Of a stretch of DNA of 64,000 nt, positions 6,538-13,129 are shown in pieces. Position numbers and translations under genes: made by a program. The stretch is from assembly GCA_027489965.1 (NCBI GenBank), contig JAIXZA010000053.1, positions 57,976-121,975 on the forward strand, given 5' to 3'. A model generated the notes under the pieces. That model did not search any database, had not been told where the DNA came from, and saw nothing but the letters and a program-made list of their open reading frames with translations. This DNA is from Verrucomicrobiaceae bacterium (GTDB taxonomy: Bacteria > Verrucomicrobiota > Verrucomicrobiia > Verrucomicrobiales > Verrucomicrobiaceae). Numbering within the stretch: the stretch's first letter is position 1; every line of letters begins with the position of its first letter.

Positions 6538-7098
6538 TTACTGCGCACTATCCTTCGCCTGCTGCTGACTCGCGGCATCCAGCTTGCTCATCGCATAGGG
6601 AACCTCTTGTGCGTTGGCGGGCATGCGAAGGATGACGTTTTCACCTTCCAGGCGCACAAAACCAGCCTTGATCTTTTTGCCCTCAAAATTGGTCCAAGTC
6701 ATAATCGGCGGCAGATCTTTTTTGGCCAAGCCCGCTGTCGGAGTCATTTTGGGAGCATCCTTGGTTAAGCCAGCCCCCTCAGTGATCCACTCGCGCATTG
6801 TTTCGATTTCACGACTGGAAAGATTGTCCTTCGGCGGCATATGCGCCTCATGCTCTGCGTCTGCCACGACGATAAAGAGATGACTTTCAGCAGGATTCCC
6901 AGGCACGATGGCCCCTTTTGGATTGATGTCTTTTTGAAACGTCTCTAGATCATCAAAGACATAACCAGCCTTCTTTTTTCCCGCCTTTTCACTGTGACAT
7001 TCATAGCAATGCTTTTCCAAAATAGGTTGGATGTCTTTTTTGAAATCAGCCGCTAAAGTGCTGCTGGTAATGATAAGAAGAGCTGTGAAAACTTTCAT
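6538..7098 (-). CDS. Secreted planctomycete-type cytochrome c (PSCyt1) with C-terminal SHD1-like domain
   Basis: Signal peptide, DFKKDIQPILEKHCYECH heme motif, IVPGNPAES, HMPP, WITEGA. C-terminal WTNFEGKKIKAGFVRLEGENVIL..LDAASQQ is SHD1-like. ATG at 7098 preferred over TTG at 7110. Confidence 0.85.
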   Translation of the reverse strand: MKVFTALLIITSSTLAADFKKDIQPILEKHCYECHSEKAGKKKAGYVFDDLETFQKDINPKGAIVPGNPAESHLFIVVADAEHEAHMPPKDNLSSREIETMREWITEGAGLTKDAPKMTPTAGLAKKDLPPIMTWTNFEGKKIKAGFVRLEGENVILRMPANAQEVPYAMSKLDAASQQQAKDSAQ

Positions 7099-7197
7099 GA
7101 GGAGTGTCAATCAAACGTGCAAGTCACCATGAGCTTAGATTTTGTCTTTTTCACATCCTTCTTTGCGCCCGGTCCAGCATAGCCCAATATCCCTACC

Positions 7198-8088
7198 GTG
7201 CTAGACGCCATCGACAGCTTCATCCTACACCTCGCTACCGAACGAGGCCTGTCCACCAATTACCAGATCCTGGTCCGTGGTGTTTTAGAGGCTTTTGCCT
7301 CTTGGAGTAAAGAAGATCAAAAGCTCGAAGACGTGGCCGCCGTGACAACTCAAACGCTCTCAGACTACCTCGCCCGCCGGAAGCGTGACGGCATTGCAGC
7401 CTCCAGCGCTCGCATTGAGCTGGTGGCCCTGAAGATTTTCTTCCGCTGGTTAGCCGCCCGCGGCAAGCGTGTCGGTGATCCTGCTGAACCCATCCTCCCT
7501 CCGCGCCAAGAAAAGCATCTGCCTGATACGCTGAACGAGCAGGATGCACGGACGCTTGTTGAGTCGATCACTGGAAACAGCGCCCTAGATCGCCGTGACA
7601 GAGCCATTTTAGAGCTCTTTTATGCTAGCGGCCTGCGCCTTTCTGAACTCGTTAATGCGCGATTAGAAAATCTCAGTCTCGAAGAAGGCTGGATCAGAGT
7701 AACAGGGAAAGGGAATAAAACAAGACTTTCACCCGTCGGCGGTGCAGCTCGCGACGCCCTGCAAGCTTATCTGGGTCATGGCCGGCCTGAATTGGTCGGC
7801 AAAAAGACTCAAAGTCACATCTTTCTCTCCATCCGCGGCACCGCGCTGACTCGGATGCGCGTTTATCAAATCGTTCAGGAGCGCGCCAAAACAGCCGGAC
7901 TTGAGAATCGCGTGCACCCACATCTACTCAGGCACAGCTTTGCGACCCATCTGCTGAACAATGGCGCTGATCTGCGTGTGATCCAAGAAATGCTAGGGCA
8001 CGCCGACATCTCGACGACCCAAATTTACACGCATGTGGATCAGAAGCGGCTGAAACAGGTCCATCGCCAGTTTCATCCGCGCGCTTAG
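7198..8088 (+). CDS. xerD: Site-specific tyrosine recombinase XerD
   Basis: Catalytic motifs ASGLRLSEL, VTGKGNKTR, HLLRHSFATHLL, LGHADISTTQIYTH. 296 aa ending HPRA. Housekeeping context. XerC cannot be fully excluded. Confidence 0.9.
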   Translation: MLDAIDSFILHLATERGLSTNYQILVRGVLEAFASWSKEDQKLEDVAAVTTQTLSDYLARRKRDGIAASSARIELVALKIFFRWLAARGKRVGDPAEPILPPRQEKHLPDTLNEQDARTLVESITGNSALDRRDRAILELFYASGLRLSELVNARLENLSLEEGWIRVTGKGNKTRLSPVGGAARDALQAYLGHGRPELVGKKTQSHIFLSIRGTALTRMRVYQIVQERAKTAGLENRVHPHLLRHSFATHLLNNGADLRVIQEMLGHADISTTQIYTHVDQKRLKQVHRQFHPRA

Positions 8089-8108
8089 TGTAATTTTTTT
8101 CAAATGAT

Positions 8109-8122
8109 TGAACAACTCATCA
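8109..8122 (+). promoter_or_regulatory. Imperfect palindrome resembling an ArsR/SmtB operator core
   Basis: TGAACAACTCATCA versus the SmtB-type core TGAACAnnTnTTCA, 25 bp upstream of the Cys/His-containing 129-aa gene. It overlaps TTCAA-atga-TTGAA and lies next to TCAAC-tgac-GTTGA. Confidence 0.25.
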
Positions 8123-8146
8123 ACTGACGTTGACTGAGAGTTCGTT

Positions 8147-8536
8147 ATGTTTGCTCGACTTACCCACTTCCTCATGGTTCTGCTTATGGCAGTCCCCATG
8201 TGCTTGTGTGGCGTAGCTCAGGCAAAAGAGGAAACAGGGTCATGCATGGCCTGTCACAAGTTCCTGCTTCCTGAGGACAAACCTGCGGATCAGCCGACGC
8301 ATCAATCTGACATGCCCTGCTGCCAGGGCACGCTCGAACGAAATCTTTCCCCTGACACGACTGCCACACCCCGACTGGTCTTGGTCGATTTACAGCCATG
8401 GCTGTGGCAGCGTGCCGAGGAGAGCTTCTTACCTGAAACAGGACACGAACTGAGCCTAAGCCAGTTCATTAAAGATCACGGACCGCCGCGTTTGCAGGTC
8501 CCCCTATATTACCTTCACAGCGCTCTGCTCATTTGA
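8147..8536 (+). CDS. Putative metal-sensing leader/arrest protein (DUF2946/CruR-like)
   Basis: N-terminal hydrophobic segment with CLC, then CMACH and CC. HGPP at codons 111-114 followed by a PLYYLHSALLI tail. Sits directly upstream of a Cys-rich peptide gene. Confidence 0.6.
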   Translation: MFARLTHFLMVLLMAVPMCLCGVAQAKEETGSCMACHKFLLPEDKPADQPTHQSDMPCCQGTLERNLSPDTTATPRLVLVDLQPWLWQRAEESFLPETGHELSLSQFIKDHGPPRLQVPLYYLHSALLI

Positions 8537-8706
8537 GTCGGACAGGCGAACTGCCTTGGCTATCAGCGACGAAATTGTCCGTGCGAAAGAGCACCTCAGT
8601 CCGCCGTTCTGGCGCGTCTCTCCCCAGACCGATGGGCAGGCCAATCCCTTCATGTTAAATGGCTTAAAGTAACGAAACTCAATTCAAATTCAAAACATCA
8701 AAGACT

Positions 8707-8871
8707 ATGAAAACGATCCTATCTATCCTCACTCTTGCTGCCCTTTCCACCTCAGCTTTCTCAGGTGAAGCCTGTAGCAAGTGCTGCTCTGACAAAGGCA
8801 AATCCTGCGCAGAGTGCTGCAAAGATGCTGGCAAGACCTGCGGCAAAGATTGCTGCAAAGAGAAGAAGTAA
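8707..8871 (+). CDS. Secreted 54-aa cysteine-rich metallothionein-like peptide (not in supplied ORF track)
   Basis: Manual translation: MKTILSILTLAALSTSAFSGEACSKCCSDKGKSCAECCKDAGKTCGKDCCKEKK*. Clear signal peptide, 9 Cys, A-rich leader typical of this genome's starts, and a terminator immediately downstream. Confidence 0.85.
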   Translation: MKTILSILTLAALSTSAFSGEACSKCCSDKGKSCAECCKDAGKTCGKDCCKEKK

Positions 8872-8907
8872 GCAGCCCATCGAGCGCCTCAGCGCTTGAA
8901 AACAATT

Positions 8908-8947
8908 ACCGCCGTCATCTGAATCTCAGGTGGCGGCGGTTTTGTTT
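8908..8947. terminator. Rho-independent terminator between the Cys-rich peptide gene and convergent nadA
   Basis: ACCGCCGTCATCTGA-atc-TCAGGTGGCGGCGGT stem followed by TTTGTTT. Confidence 0.85.
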
Positions 8948-8963
8948 AGTATCTATGCAGAAT

Positions 8964-9905
8964 CTACCGACTTAGCTCCAGCATTCTTAAAATCGGCTTT
9001 TCAGCACGGGCACGCAGATCTTCTGGCATCTCCACCTGCGGCGTCAGATCTCTGAGTGCATCGCGCAGCTTTTGCAGGGTATTCAGCTTCATGTAACGGC
9101 AGTCCGCGCAGGCGCAGTGACCCGTCGGACCTGGGATGAATCGCTTGTTTGGCACCTCCCGCTCCAGTCGATGCAGCATTCCGCTTTCCGTCACGATGAT
9201 GAAGGTGTTTGAGTCGCTGTTTTTGCAATAACCCACCATCTTTTCGGTCGAACAAACTTCATCTGCCAACATCCGCACCGCATAAGTGCACTCTGGATGA
9301 GCCACGACTTTTGCATCAGGATACTCGTCTTTAATCGCCTGAATGCTATCACGGGTGAACTCCACATGGACATAGCAAGAGCCCTTCCAAAGATCCATCT
9401 TGCGGCCTGTCTGCTCCATCACCCATGAACCCAGATTCTGATCCGGCACAAAAAGGATCGGACGATCTTTCGGGGCGGCTTCCACGATTTTGACCGCATT
9501 GCCACTCGTGCAGATGCAGTCGCTTAGCGCCTTCACATGACCGCTGCAATTGATGTAAGCGATCACATAATAATTCTTCTCTGCATTCGCCTTCAGGAAA
9601 GACTCCAGCTGCGGCCCAGGGCAGCTTTGCTCCAAGGAACAACCCGCGTCCCGATCTGGCAAAATCACCGTCTTCGTCGGATTGACGATTTTTGCTGTTT
9701 CCGCCATGAAATGCACACCGCAAAAAGCAATCACATCCGCATTCGTCTCTTTGGCTTTGTAAGCCAGCCCCAGAGAATCCCCCACAAAGTCAGCGATTTC
9801 CTGAATGTCCCGAGTTTGGTAGTTGTGCGCGAGAATGAGAGCATTGCGCTCCTGTTTCAGGCGGCGGATATCTTCAATAAGGCTGGGTGTGGCGGTTGCG
9901 ACCAT
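8964..9905 (-). CDS. nadA: Quinolinate synthase A
   Basis: ILAHNYQ, DFVGDSL, FCGVHFMAETAK, AGCSL, YINCS, CYVH, AHPEC, and the C-terminal C..MKLNTL motif. Confidence 0.97.
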   Translation of the reverse strand: MVATATPSLIEDIRRLKQERNALILAHNYQTRDIQEIADFVGDSLGLAYKAKETNADVIAFCGVHFMAETAKIVNPTKTVILPDRDAGCSLEQSCPGPQLESFLKANAEKNYYVIAYINCSGHVKALSDCICTSGNAVKIVEAAPKDRPILFVPDQNLGSWVMEQTGRKMDLWKGSCYVHVEFTRDSIQAIKDEYPDAKVVAHPECTYAVRMLADEVCSTEKMVGYCKNSDSNTFIIVTESGMLHRLEREVPNKRFIPGPTGHCACADCRYMKLNTLQKLRDALRDLTPQVEMPEDLRARAEKPILRMLELSR

Positions 9906-10027: not shown

Positions 10028-12598
10028 ATGAAAACAAGCCACTACCTCCAGCTCGCGAGCGCCTTAGCCCTAGGCCTATCCGCTTGTAAACCAGCTGCCA
10101 ATACTGCCGCTGATGATGAAGCACGTCGGCAGATGGAGGCAACTCGTGCTGCATATGAGAAGCAGGCTGCCGACATGCAAAGCCGTAGTGAAGCCCTGCA
10201 AAAGCAGCTCGCCGACTTGGAGCTCAGCATCAAGGACAAGGAAAATGCGGACCTCAGGGCAAAGCTGGATGCGATTGCTGCTGAAAACCAAAAACTCATG
10301 ACCGATGCAGCCTCGGCACGCAAAAAAAGTGAAGACCTGCGCGATCAACTGGCCAACAACCGCTACACGCCACCCGCCGTCAGCCAGCCCTATCAGCCAC
10401 CTTACGTGCCGCCACAGATCTCGCCCTCTGTCCCCTCCCGTCCGTGGGTGGACCCGTCTGCCGACTACTCCATGTTTTATGATTCCCTCAATCCTCATGG
10501 GCGCTGGCTGAACGTGGATGGCTACGGCTACGCCTTCAGCCCCAGAATTGGTTCCCGTTCTTCATGGCGGCCTTACGTCGATGGACGCTGGGTCTCTACC
10601 GCTCAGGGTTGGGCTTGGGATTCCAACGAACCCTTTGGCTGGGCCTGCTATCACTACGGCCGCTGGACCCGCCTTGCCCGTCACGGATGGGTTTGGATTC
10701 CCGGTCGTCAATGGGCGCCCTCATGGGTTTCTTGGCGCTACGGTAGTGATTCCGTCGGCTGGGCTCCCCTGCCCCCTAGCGTCGGTTATGGCAGCATCGG
10801 CCACGATTGTGATGCCCGTTACGGCATTGCCCCCACCAGCTATACCTTCATCCGTGCGACTAATTTTGGACGTTCTAGCTACGTCAATGTAAGCCTCTCC
10901 ATCACCAACATCACCCAGATTTTCCATCAAACGATCAACGTCACCAACATCGTTCAAGTTCGCCAACAGCAGAATAATCTCTTCATCCAGCGTGGTGGCC
11001 CTGCCTTGGACTGGGTCGAAAAACGCTGCGGTGAACGCATCGAGCGGGCACCGATTCAAGTCGTCCACACCTTAGAGCGGCCAGGAGAACGCCGCCCCGG
11101 CCACAGCGATCATGGTTTCATCGCAGCCCCGTTGCCATCAGGACGCGCCAATCGCCCGACTGAACTCCCTCGCAATGCAGAACGTGTCATAGCACCGACC
11201 GTTGTCGATGCCTGGACTGAAGTGCCAGCCGATCAACGCGACGACCTACGTAAAGCCATCACTGAACAAGCCACCGAAGCTCAACCAAAGCCCGTTCTCG
11301 CCGTCACCGACCCGATCATTGTGGAACCAGTGCGTGAATCACCCGCACAGCCAACCATCCCAGCACCAACTGTGGCCGAATTGCCAGGTCGCGGCCCAGG
11401 CCGTAATCGCGGCAAAGGAGACGCCCCAGCCATGCCACAGTTAGAGATTGCTCAAGACGCGGCCAACAAAGCTGACCTAGCCCGCCGAGATGCAGAGCGC
11501 CAGATGCAAGAAGCTCAAGCAGAGCGCGAAAAGCAGCTAGCTGAACAAAAAGCTGCTGAAAGTGCCATGGTAGCCCAACAAGAAAATCTTGCCAAAAAGC
11601 AGGCCGAAGCCATCGCCATGCAGGAGCAGCTAGCCGAGCAAGCTAAGAAAGACGCTGCCATGCGTGAAAAGCAGGCCAGTGAGATGAGCGACAAAGAAGC
11701 CGCTGCACTCAAAGAAAAACAAGCCTCCGACATGGCGGCTCAACAGGAAGAGCTCGCCAAAAAGCAGGCTGAAGCTGTAGCCATGCAGCAGCAGATCGCC
11801 GAGCAGGAAAAAAAAGCCCTGGCCATGCGTGAAGAACAAGCCGCCATCATGAAGCAGCAAGAGGCCGAGGCAGAAAAGGCCAAGGAACTTGCAATGATGG
11901 CAGCCCAGCAAGAAGCCGAAGCCCGCAAACAAGCTGAAGCAGCTTCCATGGCACAGCAAGAAGCCGCCATGCAGGCCGATGCTCTGAAACAACAACAAAT
12001 GCAAACGGCGCAACAGGAAGCAGAACAACGTAAACTCGCCGAGATGGAAGCCGGCAAAGCCCGCGAAAATGCCATGGCAGCCCAACAAGCCGCTCAGGAA
12101 GAACAAGCACGCCGCCAAGCCGAAGCTGCAGCCATGGAAGCTCAACGCGAAGCCAACATGCAGGCCCAACAGGAAGCCGCCGAACGCCAGCGCCTAGCCG
12201 CCATGGAAGCTCAACGCGAAGCCGCGATGCAGGCGCAACAAGAAGCCGCCGAACGTCAGCGCCAAGCCGCCATGGAAGCTCAGCGTGAAGCTGCCATGCA
12301 AGCCCAACAAGAAGCAGCCGAACGCCAGCGCCTAGCCGCCATGGAAGCTCAACGTGAGGCCGCTATGCAGGCCCAACAGGAAGCCGCCGAACGTCAGCGC
12401 CAAGCCGCCATGGAAGCTCAACGTGAAGCTGCGATGCGTGCACAGCAGGAAGCTCAAGAAGCAATGCGCCAACAGCAACAAGAAGCTGCCCGTCGTGCCC
12501 AAGAAGAAGCCATGCGAGCCCAGCAAGAAGCTGCCCAGCGCGCTGCCGCCGAAGAAGCGGCACGACGCGCTGCCCAGCAGCCACCGCCAGGACAATAA
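10028..12598 (+). CDS. Lipoprotein with DUF6600-type Trp/Tyr-rich domain and long Ala/Gln/Glu helical tail
   Basis: Lipobox LSAC, N-terminal coiled coil, FYDSLNPHGRW..WRPYVDGRW..EPFGWACYHYGRW..WAPSWVSWR, and a C-terminal low-complexity helical repeat region. Confidence 0.85.
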   Translation: MKTSHYLQLASALALGLSACKPAANTAADDEARRQMEATRAAYEKQAADMQSRSEALQKQLADLELSIKDKENADLRAKLDAIAAENQKLMTDAASARKKSEDLRDQLANNRYTPPAVSQPYQPPYVPPQISPSVPSRPWVDPSADYSMFYDSLNPHGRWLNVDGYGYAFSPRIGSRSSWRPYVDGRWVSTAQGWAWDSNEPFGWACYHYGRWTRLARHGWVWIPGRQWAPSWVSWRYGSDSVGWAPLPPSVGYGSIGHDCDARYGIAPTSYTFIRATNFGRSSYVNVSLSITNITQIFHQTINVTNIVQVRQQQNNLFIQRGGPALDWVEKRCGERIERAPIQVVHTLERPGERRPGHSDHGFIAAPLPSGRANRPTELPRNAERVIAPTVVDAWTEVPADQRDDLRKAITEQATEAQPKPVLAVTDPIIVEPVRESPAQPTIPAPTVAELPGRGPGRNRGKGDAPAMPQLEIAQDAANKADLARRDAERQMQEAQAEREKQLAEQKAAESAMVAQQENLAKKQAEAIAMQEQLAEQAKKDAAMREKQASEMSDKEAAALKEKQASDMAAQQEELAKKQAEAVAMQQQIAEQEKKALAMREEQAAIMKQQEAEAEKAKELAMMAAQQEAEARKQAEAASMAQQEAAMQADALKQQQMQTAQQEAEQRKLAEMEAGKARENAMAAQQAAQEEQARRQAEAAAMEAQREANMQAQQEAAERQRLAAMEAQREAAMQAQQEAAERQRQAAMEAQREAAMQAQQEAAERQRLAAMEAQREAAMQAQQEAAERQRQAAMEAQREAAMRAQQEAQEAMRQQQQEAARRAQEEAMRAQQEAAQRAAAEEAARRAAQQPPPGQ
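12128..12457 (+). repeat. In-frame 69-bp tandem repeat (23 aa; 4 full copies plus a partial fifth)
   Basis: Unit AA(M)EAQREAAMQAQQEAAERQR[L/Q] starts at 12128, 12197, 12266, 12335 and 12404. The last residue alternates L,Q,L,Q. Confidence 0.95.
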
Positions 12599-12673: not shown

Positions 12674-13129
12674 ATGCGCTTTCTCTTTCTTTTAACAGTG
12701 ACAGTCCTTTCGGCCTGTACTTCTAGTGAATCAGAGAGCGAGACACGACCCACGGGCCGAAATGTCCTCGACGACACAACTTTAAAATCAGCTGCTTCGG
12801 GGAACATCAGTTTCACCGAGCATGTGAAGCCCATTCTTGAGGCCAAGTGCGCCATGTGTCACAACCAAAACGGGCTTCCTGGTCGCCTCGGTTTCGCCAG
12901 CCGAGAAGCAGCCGTCAAAACTGGCACTCTCGGTATCTTCATCGTTCCTGGACATCCCGAAAGTAGCAGGCTCCTCACGCATCTAACCAGCGCTCATTCT
13001 TCCGTGAATGCCATGCCTCCTGTCGGTGAAACACTGACTTCAGAAGAAACAGCTCTTTTGAGTCGCTGGATCAGCCAAGGTGCCATTTGGCCAGCCGGAG
13101 AGGCTGGCAAGCTGATCACAGAACGCTGA
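12674..13129 (+). CDS. Planctomycete-type cytochrome c lipoprotein (PSCyt1)
   Basis: Lipobox LSAC, ISFTEHVKPILEAKCAMCH, IVPGHPESSRL, AMPPVGETL, WISQGA. Confidence 0.85.
   Translation: MRFLFLLTVTVLSACTSSESESETRPTGRNVLDDTTLKSAASGNISFTEHVKPILEAKCAMCHNQNGLPGRLGFASREAAVKTGTLGIFIVPGHPESSRLLTHLTSAHSSVNAMPPVGETLTSEETALLSRWISQGAIWPAGEAGKLITER

Follow-up and report, generated by a model that had tools for sequence, protein, structure and literature searches.

What does a small cysteine-rich protein with a diproline close to its C-terminus do for the gene that follows it? The question is raised by an open reading frame (ORF) at 8147-8536 in a 64,000-nucleotide (nt) stretch of the genome of a Verrucomicrobiaceae bacterium (contig JAIXZA010000053.1; this whole stretch is called the window below), which an earlier note had taken for a possible translation-arrest monitor. 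Small exported Cys-rich leaders that carry a C-terminal PP or RAPP have been described in the literature as sensing copper while they are nascent (PMC9973294, PMC9426467). The product of the ORF, of 129 amino acids (aa), looks like an exported, Cys-rich and predicted unstructured protein of a family restricted to Verrucomicrobiaceae, with a layout like that of CutF and SilD. We give a probability of about 0.55 to the reading that the ORF belongs to the functional class of CutF, CruR, CopL and SilD, as a member that has diverged and is specific to Verrucomicrobiaceae. Proteins of this class are small, Cys-rich, exported and intrinsically unstructured, stand at the head of an operon and act mainly while nascent; the ORF would be a metal-sensing leader of this kind. 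Its anatomy, conservation, fixed spacing, co-transcription, gene pairing and resemblance to SilD were observed directly. The parts of the ORF are the following:

8147-8536, + strand: the ORF, 129 aa, with ATG at 8147 and TGA at 8534-8536
8147-8224, + strand: predicted signal peptide or signal anchor, aa 1-26 (hydropathy, inspection)
8243-8257, + strand: C33-M-A-C36-H37, first Cys pair of the mature part (column counts, spacing)
8318-8407, + strand: most constrained core, aa 58-87 (conservation, dN/dS)
8408-8476, + strand: variable linker of conserved length, aa 88-110 (dN/dS, spacing counts)
8477-8488, + strand: H111-G112-P113-P114, candidate ribosome-pausing diproline (codons CAC GGA CCG CCG)
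8501-8536, + strand: C-terminal tail P119-L-Y-Y-L-H124-S-A-L-L-I129 with the stop codon (counts from the stop)

In parts, the protein reads MFARLTHFLMVLLMAVPMCLCGVAQA, then KEETGSCMACHKF...MPCCQGTLERNLSPDTTATPRLVLVDLQPWLWQ...KDHGPPRLQVPLYYLHSALLI. The N-terminus contains R4, a hydrophobic core (LMVLLMAVPMCLCGV, residues 8-23; Kyte-Doolittle 12-residue mean up to 2.67) and AQA at residues 24-26. In the constrained core, C58-C59, R65 and P75, arranged as C58-x6-R65-x9-P75, are followed by RLVLVDLQPWLW. Exactly 15 residues (RLQVPLYYLHSALLI), ending in LYYLHSALLI, lie between HGPP and the stop codon, which confirms the position that the earlier note had given for this motif. Sequence searches with the ORF protein returned no match in Pfam, NCBIfam or PDB, and in Pfam none even at E<=10; the family profile and the small partner peptide described below likewise gave no match against PDB sequences. 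Pfam and NCBIfam scans extended to all 17 and all 59 relatives, to three consensus sequences and to the small peptide yielded nothing of use either. AlphaFold2 produced no confident fold with 17 sequences (mean pLDDT, the predicted local distance difference test, 44.5; pTM, the predicted template modelling score, 0.18), and again none with 59 sequences (pLDDT 64.9, pTM 0.23).

The ORF is a genuine conserved gene. A word-indexed search found 16 close homologues at 44-98% identity, and an exhaustive profile search gave 59 representatives (clusters at 50% identity), nearly all of 111-139 aa, to which the conservation counts given here refer; the taxonomically placed genome matches are all metagenome-assembled genomes of Verrucomicrobiaceae (Prosthecobacter, Brevifollis and unclassified). 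In codon analysis, the ratio of nonsynonymous to synonymous substitution rates (dN/dS) of the whole ORF is 0.16-0.38, that is, purifying selection; by segment it is 0.04-0.28 for aa 33-87, 0.19-0.81 for the linker and, in most pairs, 0.05-0.37 for the last 19 residues. In addition, the ORFs of 60-170 aa on both strands of the window were filtered for a few CutF-like traits (an N-terminus that is hydrophobic, a PP among the last 22 residues, two or more Cys), and only this one passed. Because of the homologues, the purifying selection and this sole pass, the ORF is more than a chance reading frame.

The (near-)invariant positions of the family are P17, C21, C33, C36, C58, R65, P75 and L128. In the signal region, P17 and C21 are each kept in 58/59 representatives and C19 in 53/59; in the core, C58, R65 and P75 are each found in 58/59, and the spacing is equally rigid, with C58 and R65 seven residues apart in 58/59 and R65 and P75 ten apart in 59/59. 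C58 and P113 are 51-57 residues apart in 57/59 although the sequence of the intervening linker evolves fast, and the distance from C36 to P113 ranges over 67-83 residues. The layout that had been read from the single sequence (signal or transmembrane segment, Cys motif, spacer, PP and short tail) is thus conserved across the family.

The first Cys pair bears on the suggestion that CMACH, which fits CxxCH, makes the product a small c-type cytochrome or haem sensor acting through C33-xx-C36-H37. The window protein and its close relatives do carry this motif, and across the family C33 is kept in 59/59 and C36 in 58/59, but H37 in only 23/59, while the pair is spaced as CxxC in 27/59 and as adjacent CC in 32/59. 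Because the His is so often missing and CC so frequent, C33 and C36 are a thiol or metal motif, and a haem-c site conserved in the family is ruled out. The ORF also has no cytochrome match in Pfam, whereas two neighbouring genes score, so that the genuine haem-c motifs of the window are detected by this search; the haem alternative therefore falls away almost entirely, and we regard it as extremely unlikely. Both genes encode small exported proteins in which Pfam finds a Planctomycete cytochrome c domain (PSCyt1; E=1e-11 and 1e-7) and which have a true CxxCH:

6538-7110, - strand: PSCyt1 protein (Pfam)
12674-13129, + strand: PSCyt1 protein (Pfam)

Toward the C-terminus, P113 is found in 51/59 representatives, P114 in 44/59 and the aligned PP in 43/59, and a PP occurs somewhere in the last 20 residues of 48/59. 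P113 lies 16 residues from the C-terminus in 47/59, and the PP of the window protein is at -17/-16 from the end. The residues before the diproline are far less constant (H111 21/59, G112 28/59, with Arg at 111 in 8/59 and Ala at 112 in 9/59). Consequently, the description of HGPP as a variant of RAPP or RGPP is not borne out, as the window protein has no Arg there and H and G both vary; of the predicted [RH]-[AG]-P-P conservation, the PP stands and the first two positions do not. G-P-P is a slow motif for the ribosome that depends on EF-P. A minority of relatives have PP at -12/-11 (xPPLY), and some members without PP at 113 have PP right before LY (GPPLY, APPLY, HPPLY), as does SilD in its PPPL. 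The tail of the family follows the consensus PLYxRHCALL[IL]-stop, and at -5 the window protein has S where the family has C.

The gene that follows the ORF, and the flanks of the pair, are these:

8707-8871, + strand: 54-aa ORF, Sec-type signal peptide and 34-residue Lys/Cys-rich mature peptide (pairing, dN/dS, RNA contigs)
8908-8940: strong hairpin terminator of 15 bp, 9 of them GC, with T-runs, between the small ORF and the convergent nadA
7198-8088: xerD-type recombinase gene, upstream flank (Pfam Phage_integrase E=1e-44)
8964-9905: nadA, convergent, downstream flank (Pfam NadA E=1e-114)

The small ORF starts 170 nt 3' of the 129-aa ORF on the same strand. Its mature peptide (EACSKCCSDKGKSCAECCKDAGKTCGKDCCKEKK) has 10 Cys in the pattern C-x2-CC-x6-C-x2-CC-x6-C-x3-CC and a net charge of about +3, and with a dN/dS of 0.04-0.12 it is far more strongly conserved than the 129-aa ORF. 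The peptide has 30 homologues, none of them functionally named, the sole taxon name among them being Verrucomicrobiales; it has no Pfam, NCBIfam or PDB match and no functional annotation in the databases searched. It may act in the periplasm as a peptide of metallothionein-like or disulfide-rich type.

In all loci with enough sequence except one (L029), the small peptide is encoded 3' of the ORF on the same strand, at an intergenic distance of 150-300 nt. The two genes occur together in at least five different flanking contexts, including relatives at about 25-35% identity with unrelated flanks (L017, L021, L022, L025, L028, L030 and L031). The small peptide is the conserved partner of the 129-aa ORF, and its gene probably the one that is regulated. 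In the exception, L029, an outer-membrane efflux gene of OEP/CusC type (Pfam E=4.8e-19) begins 108 nt downstream of the family member P0069, and since this member leads an OEP gene without the small peptide, the family is not tied to the latter. In two distant lineages, L021 and L028, a gene for an 85-86-aa exported or lipoprotein-like, YHS/TRASH-like protein comes after the pair to form a three-gene unit, and L021 also has an OEP fragment and a multicopper oxidase further downstream:

L021 5890-6147 and L028 1635-1895: YHS/TRASH-like gene, 3' of the pair
L030 233-724 and L031 2956-3447: gene for a 163-aa protein

The 163-aa protein is conserved, has an N-terminal transmembrane segment and is recorded under no Pfam family. 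It is encoded directly upstream of the family member in L030 and L031, which are unrelated contigs, and could be a further component in this sub-lineage.

Transcript data fit a bicistronic unit in which the ORF and the small ORF are co-transcribed. In lake metatranscriptomes, one contig of 711 nt spans 8163-8873 (run X12), and 8527-8776 is spanned in a second run (X23); these RNA contigs cover both genes and the spacer and leave xerD and nadA uncovered. The contig ends at 8873 and the depth is 0 after about 8896. Between the two ORFs no terminator was found, and the hairpin at 8908-8940 probably ends the two-gene transcript as a bidirectional intrinsic terminator.

A secreted, cationic peptide rich in disulfides, encoded next to a small membrane or exported protein, also calls to mind an antimicrobial peptide of bacteriocin or defensin type with a single-pass immunity protein, and the Sec signal, the net charge of about +3 and the 10 Cys would suit this. 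On the other hand, the pair appears vertically inherited, remaining at the syntenic xerD-nadA site down to an ORF identity of 35-57%; the purifying selection on the peptide is very strong; no transporter or modification genes are present; and neither the metal-gene neighbours nor the SilD-like tail would be explained. We consider this pairing of toxin and immunity improbable.

The closest likeness to a known leader was found with SilD of Cupriavidus metallidurans pMOL30 (WP_008642716), encoded upstream of silCBA, a labelled CutF-like node (PMC9973294). The C-terminus of SilD is ...VPRPPPRPLAILHCCFRI-stop, and the consensus of its family is xRAPPPPLxILHCCFRT-stop, with [TI] as the last residue. 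When positions are numbered back from the stop, P(-11), L(-10), H(-6) and C(-5) stand at the same distance in both families, with frequencies of 0.89, 1.0, 0.95 and 1.0 in the SilD family and of 0.83, 0.73, 0.66 and 0.75 in the present one; as a rough estimate, four such fixed tail residues would be expected by chance in about 1e-6 per protein. In profile-profile comparisons with SilD and its family, only the last 13-14 residues align; hhalign pairs the two families over the last 14 residues, ungapped and up to both C-termini (P=0.009, probability 4.5%), which by itself is not significant.

The two families are further alike in a size of about 130 aa, a hydrophobic N-terminus ending in Cys, central Cys motifs, a variable linker of fixed length, a C-terminal PP and the tail P-L-x3-H-C-x4-stop. 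SilD precedes an efflux operon, as P0069 precedes its OEP gene. They differ in that SilD has R-A-P-P-P-P-L directly before the tail, whereas here the PP is 3-4 residues further off and no Arg is present; in that SilD has a CxxHC motif, whereas the Cys motifs of the present family are C(xx)C and CPC/PCC; and in that SilD is followed by an efflux pump, whereas the present family is usually followed by the small Cys-rich peptide. The distance from CxxHC to PP is 48 in 16/19 SilD homologues, the same as in CruR, compared with 51-57 (C58 to P113) here, and one SilD homologue has a precomputed match to PF11162. Because of the shared size, export signal ending in Cys, Cys motifs, fixed-length linker, PP and in-register tail, and of the member that leads an OEP gene, a common origin or a common mechanism with SilD-type CutF-like leaders is the best reading of this resemblance.

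CutF of Rhodobacter capsulatus, the first gene of cutFOG, has the motif C69xxHC73 and the C-terminal EGPPPRL (PMC8456105, PMC9973294); stalling at its PPP is EF-P-dependent and melts a stem-loop (10.1101/2025.02.05.636593). The window protein resembles it as a small Sec-exported product with four mature Cys and a C-terminal G-P-P(-P)-R-L (EGPPPRL in CutF, HGPPRL... here), encoded by the first gene of an operon with an exported metal-related product, and with no mature fold predicted. However, CutF ends two residues after its PPP, whereas here 15 further conserved residues follow, and the target of CutF is a multicopper oxidase, whereas here it would be the 54-aa peptide, whose start is predicted to be unstructured and has no Shine-Dalgarno sequence. 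CutF-like genes were catalogued by a length below 150 aa, a signal peptide, a PP located among the last 15 residues, and a same-strand gene lying downstream; their commonest downstream neighbour is of OEP/CusC type, and members without a proline motif (CzcI) were acknowledged (PMC9973294). The window protein has the size (129 aa) and, by hydropathy and inspection, the signal (positive n-region, hydrophobic core and AQA), as well as the co-transcribed small ORF 170 nt downstream. Its PP, however, lies outside the last 15 residues, although the xPPLY relatives would pass. Alongside the Cys motifs, the neighbour in the window is the uncharacterised 10-Cys peptide, and relatives adjoin OEP, YHS/TRASH-like and multicopper oxidase genes; an OEP gene directly 3', the operon position of SilD/CusD-type members ahead of RND/OEP genes, is found only in L029.

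A similar comparison can be made with CruR (Bp2923, DUF2946) of Bordetella pertussis, which has a CXXC and, 45 residues on, RAPP three residues from its end (PMC9426467). In DUF2946, the spacing from CxxC to RAPP is conserved to within 1-2 residues, and CruR itself is poorly structured, is followed by a 162-nt spacer and works through Rho-dependent control (PMC9426467). Here too the intergenic region is long (170 nt), the distance from Cys to PP is conserved and the structure is poor, and a Rho-dependent polarity model would be compatible with the C>G spacer described below. In contrast, CruR combines its CXXC with a RAPP three residues from the end, matches PF11162, can dispense with its signal peptide and represses a TonB-dependent importer. 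The CXXC of DUF2946 is found here as C33xxC36 in the window protein and in 27/59 representatives, and as adjacent CC in the other 32/59, both cysteines being close to invariant; the RAPP has no counterpart, the HGPP of the window being 15 residues from the end, and the spacing is conserved at different and looser values (51-57 and 67-83). The DUF2946 profile (PF11162), proposed earlier as a check, gave no match to the window protein at E<=10; only 3/59 relatives match, with a best E-value of 0.1, and three family consensus sequences gave none.

The earlier note had compared the layout with arrest leaders that sense either metal or force. Of these, the metal-sensing layout is upheld by CutF, CruR, the SilD-like tail and the metal-gene neighbours. 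The other possibility is a Sec/YidC secretion monitor that senses translocation force, as do SecM, VemP, MifM and the RAPP-type ApdA/ApdP, with which the ORF shares an N-terminal export signal and a C-proximal, proline-containing block of about 18 residues that would fill the ribosomal tunnel. Those peptides, however, regulate Sec/YidC genes and need no cysteines, whereas in the loci examined the downstream gene is never a Sec or YidC component (in the window, the order is the 54-aa peptide and then the convergent nadA), the Arg of R-A/G-P-P is missing and the invariant cysteines would be left unexplained. Target and invariant residues point to metal or redox sensing, and a force monitor is very unlikely.

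Between the two genes, a structured RNA and an open leader are predicted:

8533-8667, + strand: structured intergenic RNA domain (RNAalifold, 8 loci)
8668-8706, + strand: A-rich leader of the small ORF, about 40 nt, predicted unpaired (sequence, folding)

In the closing helix of the domain, TTGAGTC (8533-8539, comprising the last base of the Ile codon, TGA and GTC) pairs with GGCTTAA at 8661-8667, and the inner hairpins lie at 8581-8594 (GTGC-GAAAGA-GCAC) and 8602-8614. Compensatory changes were found in 12/29 pairs; shuffling of columns gave 6.2 +/- 1.5 (0/500), and sliding of the partners gave 2-5. These figures come from 8 sequences and from a structure derived from the same alignment, and closeness of the 5' and 3' ends is generic to RNA folds. 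When 14 loci were folded one by one, the region of the stop codon paired in 10 of them, the distant L012-L015 and L022 included, with a segment that lies 28-58 nt upstream of where the small ORF starts, in L012 through a perfect 8-bp complement (CATCTGAA/TTCAGATG). The 14-nt hairpin at 8581-8594, a palindrome, is kept across lineages in which the spacer has diverged, with compensatory ATGC/GCAT in L016. We therefore have moderate confidence in a covarying RNA domain with the stop codon in its closing helix. No Rfam family was found in 8000-9100.

The conserved RNA structure stops about 40 nt 5' of the small ORF start. The single-sequence fold of 8470-8730 is no more stable than shuffles (z = -0.17), the start is not occluded (over -25..+12, the probability of being unpaired averages 0.63-0.92 in 14 loci), and no Shine-Dalgarno sequence is present in the leader; because the fold is at the level of shuffles and the start is open, a CutF-style model in which a hairpin shields a Shine-Dalgarno sequence was dropped. 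The C/G ratio of the spacer is 1.19-1.78 (13 loci) compared with 1.12 for the window background, an excess too weak for a rut site to be called. An operator reading of the GTGC-N6-GCAC palindrome at 8581-8594 was set aside, no promoter-like site having been found.

Based on the distances of the cysteines, the conserved 18-residue block and the stop codon in the closing helix, a model in which the ORF modulates ribosome dwell is proposed. The signal sequence would take the nascent chain into the Sec translocon. With the ribosome at codons 113-114, C33/C36 would be some 77-80 residues back and already outside, and C58/C59 some 54-55 residues back, which is roughly the length of the tunnel plus the translocon entry. 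Once a thiophilic metal, most likely copper, is bound at these cysteines, or disulfide formation there is altered, the dwell of the ribosome at the diproline or tail may change, and the last 18 residues, as a conserved block, would fill the ribosomal tunnel at termination. Finally, the dwell, or the arrival at the stop codon, would remodel the intergenic RNA and/or change the access of Rho to the 170-nt spacer, and so set the output of the co-transcribed, secreted, Lys-rich 10-Cys peptide, whose role would be to bind metal in the periplasm or to buffer it there. For the ORF, we infer that metal is bound, that the ribosome pauses and in which direction regulation works; the observations counted for the leader reading are the ruler-like spacing from Cys to PP (fixed in length, with a linker dN/dS of up to 0.81), predicted disorder combined with an export signal and invariant C33, C36, C58, R65 and P75, CruR being likewise poorly structured (PMC9426467), the PP enrichment, the tail in the register of SilD, the OEP-leading P0069, the pairing across contexts, the co-transcription and the covarying RNA.

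A bolder version of this model is a two-gene module in which the nascent-chain sensor controls a new kind of secreted, metallothionein-like 10-Cys peptide, the 18-residue block GPP-x4-PLYxxHCALLI-stop acts in the tunnel at or just before termination, and the closing helix of the covarying 135-nt RNA domain clamps the stop codon. We put this forward tentatively, as a proposal that is rather doubtful in its entirety. If true, it would be an arrest or termination-pausing switch that reads the periplasmic metal or thiol-redox state without occlusion of a Shine-Dalgarno sequence, and the tail PL-x3-HC-x4-stop would define an arrest module not recognised before, one that the SilD-type leaders of metal efflux operons use as well.

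Several observations weigh against a metal-sensing leader. The PP is 16 residues from the stop, compared with 1-3 in CruR and CutF, and a ribosome paused at it would stop short of the intergenic RNA; in the 14 loci folded, the start of the small ORF is not shielded by a stem-loop. About one fifth of the representatives (some 11/59) are without any C-terminal PP, and so are the abundant lineages L001, L009 and L010 (NHRSSR, H124->Y) and L025 (TPGAL); all of these retain the partner peptide and the remainder of the protein. Outside the last 14 residues, for which the hhalign probability is that given above, no homology to DUF2946, CutF or SilD reaches statistical significance. The small peptide has no demonstrated metal link, and the window locus, between xerD and nadA, contains no other metal gene. 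The RNA contigs, drawn from mixed communities and from related strains, may include some DNA and do not define 5' ends. In addition, the most constrained part of the protein is aa 58-87, which would suit a mature protein that has its own function equally well.

This last point leads to the main rival, in which the product is a stable protein, anchored in the membrane or periplasmic, that binds thiol or metal and serves the small peptide in trans as a metallochaperone, a receptor or docking partner, or a helper of its folding or oxidation; the PP and the tail would then be ordinary protein-protein or metal-site motifs. The invariant C-x6-R-x9-P spacing of the constrained core is what such a protein would have; conserved P17, C19, C21 and C22 within the hydrophobic segment are unusual for a cleaved signal peptide; and the dispensable PP and the lack of a hairpin shielding the start are readily accommodated. 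CutF itself was originally read as a chaperone (PMC8456105). On the other hand, no confident fold is obtained even with 59 sequences, the linker is fixed in length and free in sequence, the register of the tail relative to the stop codon is common to SilD, and the L029 member leads an OEP gene without the small peptide. A stable protein working in trans is possible, and we consider it clearly less probable than a metal-sensing leader.

One further feature of the window lies beyond nadA:

10028-12598, + strand: 856-aa repeat protein

This protein has a lipoprotein-like N-terminal signal and a long C-terminal region of near-identical Q/A/E-rich repeats (AAMEAQREAAMQAQQEAAERQR...), a composition that suggests a coiled coil at the cell surface or in the periplasm. 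In L001 and L004, a large homologous ORF follows nadA at the same position.

Arrest leaders of CutF and CruR type are a recently recognised route from an extracytoplasmic signal to translational control, and to our knowledge metal-sensing ones have so far been characterised only in Proteobacteria. What is novel here is the downstream 10-Cys partner peptide and the Verrucomicrobial variant of a known leader layout. Since both the PP-within-15 filter and DUF2946 miss this family, the leader class is probably broader than catalogued. If the ORF is indeed a metal-sensing leader, the class would extend to Verrucomicrobia and would gain a new type of target, a very small Cys-rich peptide that is secreted and may buffer metal in the periplasm, and the PL-x3-HC-x4-stop tail held in common with SilD could be the key tunnel-interacting element in a large subgroup of leaders.

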